NCBI RefSeq assembly: GCF_003334255.1
Contig: NZ_QOWU01000039.1
DNA: 49,222 nucleotides
Origin: Escherichia coli
Lineage (GTDB): Bacteria > Pseudomonadota > Gammaproteobacteria > Enterobacterales > Enterobacteriaceae
Reading direction: 5' to 3' (one strand)
Position 1 is the stretch's first letter, and every line of letters starts with the position of its first letter. The position numbers and the translations under genes were made by a program. A model generated the notes under the pieces. The model was not told where the DNA came from. It saw nothing but the letters and a program-made list of their open reading frames with translations, and searched no databases. Positions 1-49,222 of the stretch are shown here, in pieces.

Positions 1-77
1 AATCGGTGGAGCTGCATGACAAAGTCATCGGGCATTATCTGAACATAAAACACTATCAATAAGTTGGAGTCATTACC
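1..77 (+). mobile_element. IS1 right-hand terminus (last 77 nt of the element; the rest lies beyond the left window edge)
   Basis: nt 1-77 end in ...CATTATCTGAACATAAAACACTATCAATAAGTTGGAGTCATTACC. I recognise this as the insB-distal end of IS1 with its terminal inverted repeat (complement GGTAATGACTCCAACTTATTGATAGTG). IS1 identity stops at nt 77/78. Confidence 0.85.
3..62 (+). CDS. insB: C-terminal fragment of IS1 transposase InsB/InsAB' (SVELHDKVIGHYLNIKHYQ*); 5' part lies outside the window
   Basis: Hand translation of nt 3-62 gives the remembered InsB C-terminus followed by TAA at 60-62. Confidence 0.8.
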   Translation, partial: SVELHDKVIGHYLNIKHYQ

Positions 78-1005
78 CTGCGTTCTCCACTAACGATATA
101 ACGTTGGCAATCGATAAATCGGGGTTATTGGTGTATTCACAGGAGAGCGCCATTGACGAACATCCCTGTGCGAAACGAACAGATTCGGCAAACGGCATTC
201 CGTCTACCCAACACGAAGCAAGTCCCGCCATCATGGCATCGCCCGCTCCGGTAACATTAATAACATTGGTTTTGATCGGCGCAGACCAGCCACTTTCACC
301 GCTGATATCGCTGTAATAAACGCCGTCGCCGCCCATGCTCAATACCAGTCGGTTCAGGCCATGTTGATGGAACCAGGCAGCAACTTTTGCCACATCTTCA
401 CGCCCTGACAGCGCAATCCCACTCAGGGTTTCCGCTTCAAGGCGGTTTGGCTTGAGAGTGTGGATCTGATTTAGACGGTCGCGCACTTTGACACATTTCC
501 ATGCCGAAACCGGATCGACAAATACGGGTACGTTGGCGGCATTATCCAGAATCCATGCCAGTGCCTCTTCACTGATATTACAGTCCGCGACAATGACCTT
601 TGCCCTCTGAATAAATTCACCGTGCTGTGCGAGATATTCAGCTGTAATAGCGTTGCTAATATTCATGTCATTTATAGCAACCAGCATTTCACCGGTATTA
701 TCGAGTAATGATAAATAACTCGACGTATTTTCTCCCGGCACAATCAGGCATTTATCGACATAAACGCCAGATTGATTGGTTTGCGTTAGCAGCGATTGAC
801 CATAAAAATCACTGCCTACGGCGCTCAGTAGCCAGGCTTTGTTACCCAGCAACGCCAGGTTTTGTGCAATATTGCGCCCTACTCCACCAGGCGTAAATTT
901 TATTTTACCTGGATTTGAATCCGCATAATTTAATGATTCATGTGAATATCCGGCGACATCAATATTCGCCGAACCTATAATTACGACATAATCCTTTTCG
1001 CGCAT
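73..1005 (-). CDS. psuK: pseudouridine kinase PsuK (YeiC), pfkB/ribokinase family; 3' end altered by the IS1 junction
   Basis: The 310-aa ORF MREKDYVVIIGSANIDVAGYS... carries a GAGDA pfkB motif. Two bases of the final Gly codon and the TAA stop (73-75) lie inside the IS1 inverted repeat. I recall native PsuK as 313 aa ending ...ENAECLN. Confidence 0.9.
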   Translation of the reverse strand: MREKDYVVIIGSANIDVAGYSHESLNYADSNPGKIKFTPGGVGRNIAQNLALLGNKAWLLSAVGSDFYGQSLLTQTNQSGVYVDKCLIVPGENTSSYLSLLDNTGEMLVAINDMNISNAITAEYLAQHGEFIQRAKVIVADCNISEEALAWILDNAANVPVFVDPVSAWKCVKVRDRLNQIHTLKPNRLEAETLSGIALSGREDVAKVAAWFHQHGLNRLVLSMGGDGVYYSDISGESGWSAPIKTNVINVTGAGDAMMAGLASCWVDGMPFAESVRFAQGCSSMALSCEYTNNPDLSIANVISLVENAG

Positions 1006-4074: not shown

Positions 4075-5204
4075 TATGCGCCCTCCCCAAGACCAGCAGC
4101 GATAGCGTCGCCGATTGCTTTCAGCGCCTGTTCAGCATCTGCACCCTGGGCGGTAAAGCGTAGGCGATGACCTTTCTTAACGCCAAGTGCCACAACTTTC
4201 ATCAGACTACGTCCGTTTGCCGGTTTGCCGGTACCATCAAGGTTTGTCACGGTAATATCACTGTTAAATTGTTTAATGGTATTGACCAGCATGGTACCTG
4301 GACGAGCATGCAGGCCGTGTTCATTGCGCACCACAAACTCCGCGCTTAACACGTCGTCGGTCGGCGCATCATCGCTGGTCAGCAGCGCCAGCAACGTTGC
4401 CGCATCCGCTTTCAGCAAGCGGTCAGCTTTATTGTCGAGCAATAAATCAGCGAGACGCTTAAGAACCGCGATGGGCTGATCGTCATTCATCGCCACACTC
4501 ACCAGCATGGCTGCCGTTTCGCCGTCCACATCAAAAGCATTTGCCGCACGGCTTACCGCAATCGCGCTACGCAGATTGCCTTCGGCGCTATCGCTCAGCC
4601 AGATACCCTGTCCGAGATTCAGCGGTTGTTCATTGATGGCTTTGGTGACGAAAGTGGCGTCAACTGCCCCCGCCTCTTTCAGACGCGCAGCGTTCAGCGC
4701 CTGAAGAGTCAGCAGATCGCTGGCGACGATATCCAGTGTCAGCATTTCGTTGTCGAGCTTCAGCTGCTCACTCTGCTTTTCGCCCATCAGTAATGCGCGA
4801 AGTTCTTCTGCTGTTGTTGCTGACTTCAGTTGTTCAGCAACGGAATCATCGCTCAGTACGTGGGTCAGCTGGCGTAGCAGGCCCAGATGTTCATCCGAGC
4901 TGGCAGCAATACCGATTGCCACGTACGCTACCTGACCGTCACCCCAGGTGACGCCTTCCGGGAACTGAAATACCTGAACGCCGGTTTTCAGCACCTGATC
5001 GCGGGTGTCGGTAGTGCCGTGTGGAATAGCAATACCATTGCCGAGGAACGTTGAGGTTTGCTGTTCGCGCGCCAGCATGCCATTGACGTAGCCTTCTGCT
5101 ACATTACCGGCCTGCACCAGCGCCGCAGCGACCTGGCGAATCGCCTCTTCTTTGTCTCCGGCCTTTTCGCCCGGATGGATGTCCTGTACGGATAACTGGA
5201 ACAT
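4074..5204 (-). CDS. fruB: fructose PTS multiphosphoryl transfer protein FruB (EIIA-Fru / M domain / FPr)
   Basis: The 376-aa ORF has an N-terminal EIIA domain (GIAIPHG) and a C-terminal HPr-like FPr domain ([10 protein letters not shown]). Confidence 0.96.
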
Positions 5205-5225
5205 AGTTCTCCTCTCTTGCTGAAT

Positions 5226-5239
5226 TGAAACGATTCAGC
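5226..5239 (-). promoter_or_regulatory. Cra (FruR) operator in the fruB promoter/leader
   Basis: The minus strand reads GCTGAATCGTTTCA, a close match to the Cra half-palindrome consensus (GCTGAAnCGnTTCA), 22-35 nt upstream of the fruB ATG. Confidence 0.7.
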
Positions 5240-5290
5240 CTCTATGAGAAAAAAAGCGCCAACCTGGCTTAGGGTTAAAGACAAGATCGC

Positions 5291-5306
5291 GCTGAAACGT
5301 TTCAAG
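5291..5306 (-). promoter_or_regulatory. second Cra (FruR) operator upstream of fruB
   Basis: GCTGAAACGTTTCAAG contains the palindromic core TGAAACGTTTCA. Confidence 0.7.
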
Positions 5307-5571
5307 AAAGCATAATACTTCTGTTTCAGCACGCAAGGAAAGCCGTAAAGTTATGAGCAAAAGTTTGATGTGCTGCACAATTTTTTGCCATTTTTCCTAA
5401 TTGCTGATGGGAAAATCCGTTATCAGCAATTTCATTTCAGCAGCGTCAGCAGCCAATCAGCAACAGTGAAATGGCATTTTGACTATTCGTGGCGCTTTTG
5501 ATTTCGCTGTCTGTTTATTTTCTGACAAGCAGCGTAAACTCCGCGTCTTCCTCTTCCAGTGATCGACCAGC

Positions 5572-44904: not shown

Positions 44905-45462
44905 CTGCCGTGAAGTGCGGCACCCCGTAGGTCAGACAAGGCGGTCACGCCGCATCCGACATCCAACGCCCGAGCCGGTTGCCTGATGCGACGCTGGCGC
45001 GTCTTATCAGGCCTACACCGCTGTGAAGTGCTCCACCCCGTAGGTCGGATAAGGCGGTTACGCCGCATCCGACATCTAACGCCCAAGCCGGTTGCCTGAT
45101 GCGACGCTGGCGCGTCTTATCAGGCCTACACCGCTGTGAAGTGCTCCACCCCGTAGGTTGGATAAGGCGGTTACGCCGCATCCGACATCCAACGTCCGAG
45201 CCGGTTGCCTGATGCGACGCTGGCGCGTCTTATCAGGCCTACACCGCTGTGAAGTGCTCCACCCCGTAGGTCGGATAAGGCGGTTACGCCGCATCCGACA
45301 TCTAACGCCCAAGCCGGTTGCCTGATGCGACGCTGGCGCGTCTTATCAGGCCTACACCGCTGTGAAGTGCTCCACCCCGTAGGTTGGATAAGGCGGTTAC
45401 GCCGCATCCAACATCTAACGCCCGAGCCGGTTGCCTGATGCGACGCTGGCGCGTCTTATCAG
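44905..45462. repeat. BIME-2-type tandem array: 5 copies (the last truncated) of a 113-bp unit, each with two inverted REP palindromes
   Basis: Unit starts fall at 44905, 45018, 45131, 45244 and 45357. Each unit contains GTAGGTCGGATAAGGCGGTTACGCCGCATCCGAC and GCCTGATGCGACGCTGGCGCGTCTTATCAGGCCTAC. Units 2 and 4 are identical. Confidence 0.9.
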
Positions 45463-45494: not shown

Positions 45495-47153
<1,659 letters not shown>

Positions 47154-47358: not shown

Positions 47359-49002
47359 TTATGCCGTCCGGGCAACGGCATCACGCGAAGCGGCATCGCG
47401 CTCTTCGCCCGTCAGCTCGCTAAGTTGCCCATTGCGCATTTCCAGCAGGCGGTCGGCGTGGATAAAGTAATGATCATCATGACTGATAGCGAAAATAGTT
47501 TTACCCATCTCCTGCATCAGCGGCAGCAACACCTGATAAAACTCACGACGGAAGTGTGGATCCTGATCCGCCGCCCATTCATCCAGCAGGATAATATCGC
47601 GTTCTTCTGCCAGCGCCAGCAACAGCGCCACGCGTTTTTTCTGCCCTTTTGATAACTTCAGGTTAACAATACGCCCGTTGCTTAACTCAAGCTTATGAGC
47701 CATTTTCAGCTGCGCCAGCCACTTCTCAACCAGTTGCGGGTTAGCGGGTTTACCCTCCGGCCCCAGCAGTTGATCAAACAGCCAGACATCGGTAAACACT
47801 GCCGAAAACAGTTTGCGATAATCTTCCGGTTGTTCGCCGCTGACAGGTTTGCCATCCAGCAAGATTTCGCCGCTTTGTGGCTGATACAAGCCCGTCAACA
47901 ACATCGCCAGCGTCGATTTTCCGCTACCGTTGCCGCCAATCAGAAACAGCAGCTCGCCACGTTTGATGGTGAGATTAATCGGACCAACGGAAAACGCGTT
48001 ATCCTGATAAGCAAACGTCACGTTACGCAGCTCCAGCGTTTGCCAGTTGGGAAACGCCTGCGGGCGCGGAAACTCTGCTTTGAAAGGCGCGAGCGCGAAT
48101 TTGTTCAGCTTGTTAAACGCCACCTGCGCCGTCAGCAGCGTCGGCAATGCGCCAACCGCCGAAAGCAGCGGCGTACGCAGGAATAAAAGCGTCAACGAAT
48201 AGGTCGCGGCAACGTTGGTATCAGCCCAACCGAGGCTGTTCGCCATCCAGAACACCAGGCCGATTGCGCCCAGCATCATGATGTTTGACCAGTTCACGGC
48301 ACTAAGATGGAAGGTGTCTGCGCGAATAATATGGTGGCGATACTCTTGCGCATCAGGAATGTAGAGGTTGTTAAACACATACTCGGCGCGTTCCCGGTTC
48401 AGAGTCAGCTCTTTGCGCCCTTCAAGTACAGTTTGAAAATCCGTGTACAGCTTGTCTTCGGTTTCACGCAGGGTCGCCATATGTTTGTACACCCGCGCCA
48501 CCAGCACAAAACCGCCCCAGATGGTGATCGCCATCCAGATAGCCGTTACCAGCAACATTTTGCCCGACAGCATCCACAGATACGCCGCTGAACCGATAGT
48601 GAGAATGATCCCCTGCACCAGTTCCGGCAGACGCACAAAAGCAATGGTGATATTGCGCACATCGCTGGTTAACCCCGCCAGCAACGAGGCGCTACCGAGT
48701 TGTTCAATGCGCTCGACGTGAGTATCCAGAATCCGCTTGATAAATTCACTACGCAGTCGGTAAACGAAGTGATGCCCCAAAGTGGTGAGCGCCAGTTGCG
48801 ATCCGAGAGTGACTGCCATCAACAGCAGCAATAATCCCAGAAACTCCGGCAACACCAGCAGACTGGTATCCGCCGTTTCGATAAGGCGCTGATTGATAAA
48901 AGCAATTAAGCCAATGCCTAATGCCGCACTGGCGAGGCTTAGCGCCATCACACTGATAAATGGCCAGCGATACTGCCGCCAGACAAGTACAAGAAGTTCC
49001 AT
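47359..49002 (-). CDS. yojI: fused TMD-NBD ABC exporter YojI (microcin J25 efflux)
   Basis: The 547-aa ORF has six N-terminal TM segments, Walker [10 protein letters not shown], the LSKGQKKR signature and Walker B ILLLDE. Confidence 0.94.
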
Positions 49003-49077
49003 GCAGAAAACCCGGACAATGAATTACAGCCCGCAGTTTAAACATCTTCGCGCGCACAGCAATAATAATTCTTATTT

Positions 49078-49146
49078 TTATTCTTTTTTACCTGCCTGAC
49101 GGAATGTCAGGTTGTAGCGGCAGTCGATGGTGAGTGGATGAAACCC
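49078..49146 (-). pseudogene. alkB: 3'-terminal fragment of alkB (last 22 codons plus stop), cut by IS186
   Basis: The minus strand translates to GFHPLTIDCRYNLTFRQAGKKE*, the remembered AlkB C-terminus. The reading frame upstream runs straight into the IS186 inverted repeat and hits a stop. Confidence 0.85.
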
Positions 49147-49222
49147 ATAAGCGCTAACTTAAGGGTTGTGGTATTACGCCTGATATGATTTAACGTGCCG
49201 ATGAATTACTCTCACGATAACT
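49146..49222 (+). mobile_element. IS186 left terminus (first 77 nt; element continues beyond the right window edge)
   Basis: CATAAGCGCTAACTTAAGGGTTGTGGTATTACGCCTGATATGATTTAACGTGCCG... matches the remembered IS186 terminal inverted repeat and leader. Confidence 0.85.
49201..49222 (+). CDS. insL: first 7 codons of the IS186 transposase InsL (MNYSHDN...); 3' part lies outside the window
   Basis: ATGAATTACTCTCACGATAAC at 49201 matches the remembered InsL N-terminus MNYSHDNWSAIL. Confidence 0.75.

Follow-up and report, generated by a model that had tools for sequence, protein, structure and literature searches.

Our analysis indicates that an IS186 element has very probably inserted between codons 198 and 199 of alkB in this Escherichia coli genome, as a recent, simple insertion at a hot spot of the element, leaving a predicted null allele. 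The window, i.e., the whole stretch of 49,222 nt analysed here, is E. coli chromosomal DNA whose minus strand carries mqo, yojI, and the 3′ end of alkB in the K-12 order. Its relevant features are:

73–1005, minus strand: PsuK::IS1 fusion ORF of 310 aa, window positions 1–77 being the right end of IS1
44910–45462: tandem array of 113 bp × 4.9 copies (95% matches) between eco and mqo, with REP/BIME-like palindromes
45495–47141, minus strand: mqo
47359–49002, minus strand: yojI, downstream of the alkB remnant
49003–49077, no strand: yojI-alkB intergenic spacer, unaltered
49078–49146, minus strand: 3′ remnant of alkB, codons 195–216 (GFHPLTIDCRYNLTFRQAGKKE) plus TAA stop, with the RXXXXXR arginines R204 and R210
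49136–49145, no strand: one copy of the 10-bp target-site duplication GGATGAAACC
49146–49168, plus strand: left terminal inverted repeat of IS186/IS421, CATAAGCGCTAACTTAAGGGTTG, 23 bp, exact
49146–49222, plus strand: left end of IS186/IS421, exactly 77 nt, ending with the contig
49201–49222, plus strand: first seven codons of the transposase gene insL (MNYSHDN), running off the window

The switch from alkB to an IS186 terminal repeat at 49146, proposed in a first-pass annotation made from the letters of this DNA, is borne out by the exact 23-bp repeat. The 54 nt that follow the repeat are identical to annotated IS421/IS186 copies, so that all 77 nt from 49146 to the contig end agree with the left end of the element. 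IS186/IS421 belongs to the IS4 family, is ∼1.34 kb long, and encodes the 370-aa DDE transposase InsL; we take IS421 to be the NCBI name for the IS186 group. The proposed insL start likewise holds, as the ATG at 49201 corresponds to the first codon of WP_001300563.1, annotated as ‘IS4-like element IS421 family transposase’ in genomes that share the junction (the CDS at 4199–5311 of locus L001 corresponds to window position 49201 onward). While the window itself holds seven insL codons, the full element in those genomes measures 1,338–1,340 bp and encodes WP_001300563.1 with the domain PF01609 DDE_Tnp_1.

On the other side of the switch, the reverse complement of 49078–49146 encodes the last 22 residues of AlkB, again in agreement with the earlier reading: 22/22 residues are identical to positions 195–216 of K-12 AlkB (216 aa), and the same peptide forms the C-terminus of solved AlkB chains, e.g., 6y0q_A 195–216. 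The break falls just upstream of R204-x5-R210, as had been stated, and a partial AlkB pseudogene is annotated at the corresponding place in junction-sharing genomes. At 49146, the base c opens the Gly195 codon and also the IS repeat, which leaves a one-base ambiguity in the boundary. Since 49136–49145 represents one copy of the target-site duplication, residues G195–P198 would recur across the IS.

Based on these features and on the other genomes described below, IS186 (IS421) would have transposed between alkB codons 198 and 199 at the site GTGG-ATGAAA-CCCC, thereby duplicating the 10 bp GGATGAAACC. The likely full structure is ada - alkB(1–198)::IS186::alkB(195–216) - yojI, with the first operon gene, ada, presumably untouched. 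In such a simple insertion the right end of IS186 (…CAACCCTTAAGTTAGCGCTTATG) would join GGATGAAACCCCGC and alkB codons 1–198, and the sequence expected to follow this end at the alkB junction is GGATGAAACCCCGCTTTCAACGG.

Both edges of the window consist of multicopy elements, 77 nt of the IS1 right end (1–77) and 77 nt of IS186 (49146–49222). We infer that these matching edges are the signature of a k=77 short-read assembly that broke at repeats. Because exactly 77 nt of repeat are present at both edges, the window represents a whole draft contig, and the sequence beyond IS186 is not readable from it. As a short-read contig, the window thus extends from one IS1 copy, in psuK, to one IS186 copy, in alkB.

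At the psuK edge, IS1 is inserted 14 nt ahead of the normal stop codon of psuK (pseudouridine kinase), and psuK is cut off from psuG. The PsuK::IS1 fusion ORF is found on six public contigs, including CBCRYS010000038.1 of GCA_965136505.1 (49,073 nt) and a contig from Logan ERR1948968. IS1 is absent from psuK in strain VG48B2; in G1/2, one of the complete genomes, an IS1 match lies ∼2.6 kb past the window start, and the psuK::IS1 junction is apparently not shared by it either. The 113-bp tandem array has one extra unit in VG48B2, and several public draft contigs stop ∼180–430 nt from mqo on the eco side, possibly at this array.

To search for the same insertion, the 220-nt junction (49003–49222) was used as query against 5,426 complete E. 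coli genomes. IS186 is present at exactly this alkB position in 11 of them, in the orientation of the window in six and in the opposite orientation in five. The full 220-nt junction is found in the first six, at 100% identity in VG48B2 and at 99.5% in PCN061, MLI023K1, MLI023K2, PRO_A-1412-6M-A, and LT883142, indicating that it is no chance resemblance. In the remaining five (PSS-08-2, MB06233, SCU-104, ETEC1749, and PCP06021) the element sits at the same base, and the query match extends only through the 23-bp repeat. Ten of the 11 genomes carry a simple insertion, in which an IS of 1,338–1,340 bp lies between two copies of GGATGAAACC and is followed on the far side by alkB codons 1–198, ada, and apbE. 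The first-pass annotation had expected the other IS end to continue into the alkB 5′ part with a short GC-rich duplication. This arrangement is seen in these ten genomes with a duplication of 10 bp; the break, however, comes after codon 198 and not after codon ∼194 as predicted, and the duplication is flanked by G and C runs but is itself just 50% GC. In SCU-104 (L012, 2348–4000 and 5440–6075) an additional internal stop is found in the alkB 5′ part, and yojI exceeds that of the other strains by 9 nt.

Several observations suggest that the site was hit repeatedly. The flanks in the 11 genomes fall into several haplotypes, which differ at up to 40 positions over 3.5 kb on the left and at up to 62 over 2.6 kb on the right, and opposite orientations occur on near-identical flanks, e.g., in PCN061 and ETEC1749. 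The IS copies themselves are identical or 1 nt apart in a MAFFT alignment. Whereas the strict minimum is two insertion events, one per orientation, the combination of orientation and flank haplotype suggests ∼7 or more independent insertions, a count that recombination could lower. The insertion in the window is probably one more independent event. The closest complete relatives of the window (G1/2, G6/7, and G8), which match it at 100.0% (rounded) over its whole unique length, carry an intact alkB of 216 aa, indicating a recent insertion in this lineage. In GCA_965136505.1, a sister contig (49,073 nt) shows no difference from the window in the 3 kb compared and has its IS1-psuK junction, which shows that the clone of the window has been sequenced more than once.

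The alkB::IS186 allele is already known from public genomes, at least 11 of them finished, and from more than 140 public contigs. Exact matches to the fusion ORFs of the K-12 allele occur on 42 contigs for the same orientation (217 aa) and on 99 for the opposite one (211 aa) in public collections, and draft contigs that end in ada-alkB(1–198)-IS186 end are common; a look-up of the AlkB fusion yielded contigs from samples other than that of the window. An exact-match scan of metagenome contigs with a 39-nt junction gave no match, and our literature search found no paper that mentions both IS186 and alkB.

IS186 has hit the alkB site recurrently, which makes it a hot spot of the element. In K-12, the unoccupied site, GTGG-ATGAAA-CCCC, fits the IS186 target motif 5′-GGGG(N6/N7)CCCC-3′, derived from 59 new insertions (Lee et al. 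2016, PMC5009759), with one mismatch. In K-12 mutation-accumulation lines, IS186 inserted in both orientations and struck single sites repeatedly, e.g., in fimA and menC (PMC5009759). Copies of the motif with one mismatch are no rarer in the 49-kb window than by chance (11 observed, 13.8 expected), so the motif alone cannot account for the alkB site being hot, and we rejected it as the sole cause.

In one of the 11 junction genomes, VG48B2, the only one to match the window at 100% over the 220 nt, yehM follows the IS, which speaks against a simple insertion. The side with the alkB remnant reads alkB3′-IS186-yehM5′-yehL, and the reciprocal junction, yehQ-yehP-yehM3′-IS186-alkB5′-ada, lies ∼101.6 kb away; the DUF5682 gene that yehL and yehP flank is here taken to be yehM. 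The two IS186 copies of VG48B2 are located on NZ_CP128584.1 at about 2,838.9–2,940.4 kb:

L001, 4144–5482: IS186 copy
L008, 15396–16734: IS186 copy

These copies are mutually inverted, and each is bordered by a duplication half from alkB (GGATGAAACC) on one side and by one from yehM (GGAAATCGCC) on the other; the target in yehM, GGGG-AAATCG-CCCC, fits the motif perfectly. The swapped duplication halves together with the inverted IS copies point to homologous recombination of two IS186 copies that had inserted separately. The arrangement in VG48B2 is thus a 101.6-kb inversion between IS186 in alkB and IS186 in yehM, and it shows that alkB copies of the element can go on to mediate large inversions.

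With this precedent, and with VG48B2 as the best match of the junction, the IS186 copy of the window could also be one end of a larger IS186-mediated rearrangement, either an inversion of this kind or a deletion, in which the alkB 5′ part and ada are not adjacent to it. We consider this unlikely. The window is no close relative of VG48B2, from which it differs by 29 mismatches in 45 kb and by the IS1 in psuK, and the 100% match merely reflects a K-12-like flank allele that is also present in PSS-08-2 and in K-12. Moreover, the simple insertion is the arrangement in all the other junction genomes. A simple insertion into alkB therefore remains our preferred reading.

What would this insertion mean for the AlkB protein? 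A complete 2OG-FeII_Oxy_2 domain, with HxD...H and RxxxxxR on one polypeptide, is not encoded in the window, which holds only AlkB residues 195–216. The 5′ ORF in relatives with the orientation of the window encodes AlkB 1–198 followed by 19 IS-derived residues, ISANLRVEPSEECDASVPR, i.e., 217 aa, and the interrupted gene of the window would encode the same product, a putative null. In the opposite orientation the tail is ISANLRVVVLRLI and the total length 211 aa. The AlkB(1–198) fusion still has the iron ligands H131, D133, and H187 and has lost R204 and R210. Residues 18–210 of intact AlkB match positions 1–194 of the Pfam profile 2OG-FeII_Oxy_2, whereas the fusion matches positions 1–181 and thus lacks the last 13 of 194. 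In 2OG oxygenases the arginine that binds the C5 carboxylate of 2OG, R204 in AlkB, is carried by the jelly-roll fold on its last core strand. The first-pass annotation had described the arginines of RYNLTFR as binding 2-oxoglutarate, in keeping with R210 being part of the AlkB family's RXXXXXR motif, which is thought to anchor this cosubstrate (PMC7968990). QM/MM models place R210 in contact with the oxo group, succinate, and D133 (PMC3994944).

A fusion that still works as a demethylase, so that the insertion has no phenotype, is very unlikely. Although the fusion keeps its three iron ligands, unrelated sequence takes the place of the last core strand of the jelly-roll, generally known to carry the 2OG-binding arginine, a replacement expected to abolish activity, and R204 and R210 both disappear together with profile positions 182–194. 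Several single substitutions of R210 keep 57–70% activity (PMC7968990), so the argument for a null allele rests on the joint loss of both arginines, R204 and R210, and of the domain end. Loss of AlkB function from the IS186 insertion is, on these grounds, likely. The acceptance of the truncated fusions as ordinary genes by NCBI's pipeline (PGAP) counts in favour of a working protein: they are named ‘DNA oxidative demethylase AlkB’ and not marked as pseudogenes (L002, L004–L008, L011, L013, and L014), with accessions such as WP_021557963.1, WP_101430439.1, WP_047928799.1, and WP_032237461.1 and others of 217 or 211 aa. Due to this label, surveys of gene presence or absence would miss the knockout.

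Finally, it is hardly credible that the junction is an assembly artefact or stems from a minority subpopulation while most cells have an intact alkB: the contig does end within a repeat, where assembly graphs are ambiguous, but the switch from alkB to IS lies 77 nt inside the contig and at the same base as a real IS186 with its 10-bp duplication in finished genomes, an intact alkB would have let the contig run on into ada, and the sister public contig comes from the same clone.

The presence of the insertion in 11 of 5,426 genomes, in both orientations, in ∼7 or more backgrounds, and on more than 140 contigs for the K-12 allele alone raises the idea that the repeated hits reflect selection, either for loss of AlkB or for an uncoupled or altered expression of yojI, the microcin exporter gene downstream of alkB, and that they would seed inversions of ∼100 kb with other IS186 copies. 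We regard this as improbable, and nothing in the data requires selection for AlkB loss. An outward IS186 promoter selected to drive yojI was considered as well and finds no support, as the two orientations are near-equal (six and five). A scan for promoters and terminators near the junction revealed nothing notable.

Overall, we regard the finding as an ordinary IS186 knockout at a consensus-like target and of modest importance. The isolate, together with a scattered minority of wild E. coli, is predicted to lack AlkB repair of 1-methyladenine and 3-methylcytosine and to be sensitive to agents of the MMS type; sensitivity to SN2 alkylating agents, already proposed in the first-pass annotation, is a reasonable prediction. 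With this insertion site, alkB joins the list of natural IS186 hot spots, another of which is the lon promoter of E. coli B.

Classical alkB mutants of E. coli are MMS-sensitive and defective in the repair of 1-methyladenine and 3-methylcytosine. The allele described here resembles them in the predicted loss of the Fe(II)/2OG-dependent DNA demethylase with ada left intact; in all relatives with the simple insertion, ada is intact and lies upstream. In contrast to these mutants, the allele goes back to an IS that inserted naturally, and an N-terminal fragment of 198 residues is left. In comparison with published IS186 hot spots, the alkB site differs in having GTGG instead of GGGG, and the main text of PMC5009759 does not mention it. 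The site is nevertheless similar to the hot spots of that study, with G and C runs on either side of a 6-nt core, insertions in both orientations, and repeated hits, and the element is the same, its 23-bp repeat being exact and its sequence identical in relatives. Relative to the known public alkB::IS186 alleles, the window shares the insertion point and the duplication, whereas the strain backgrounds differ.
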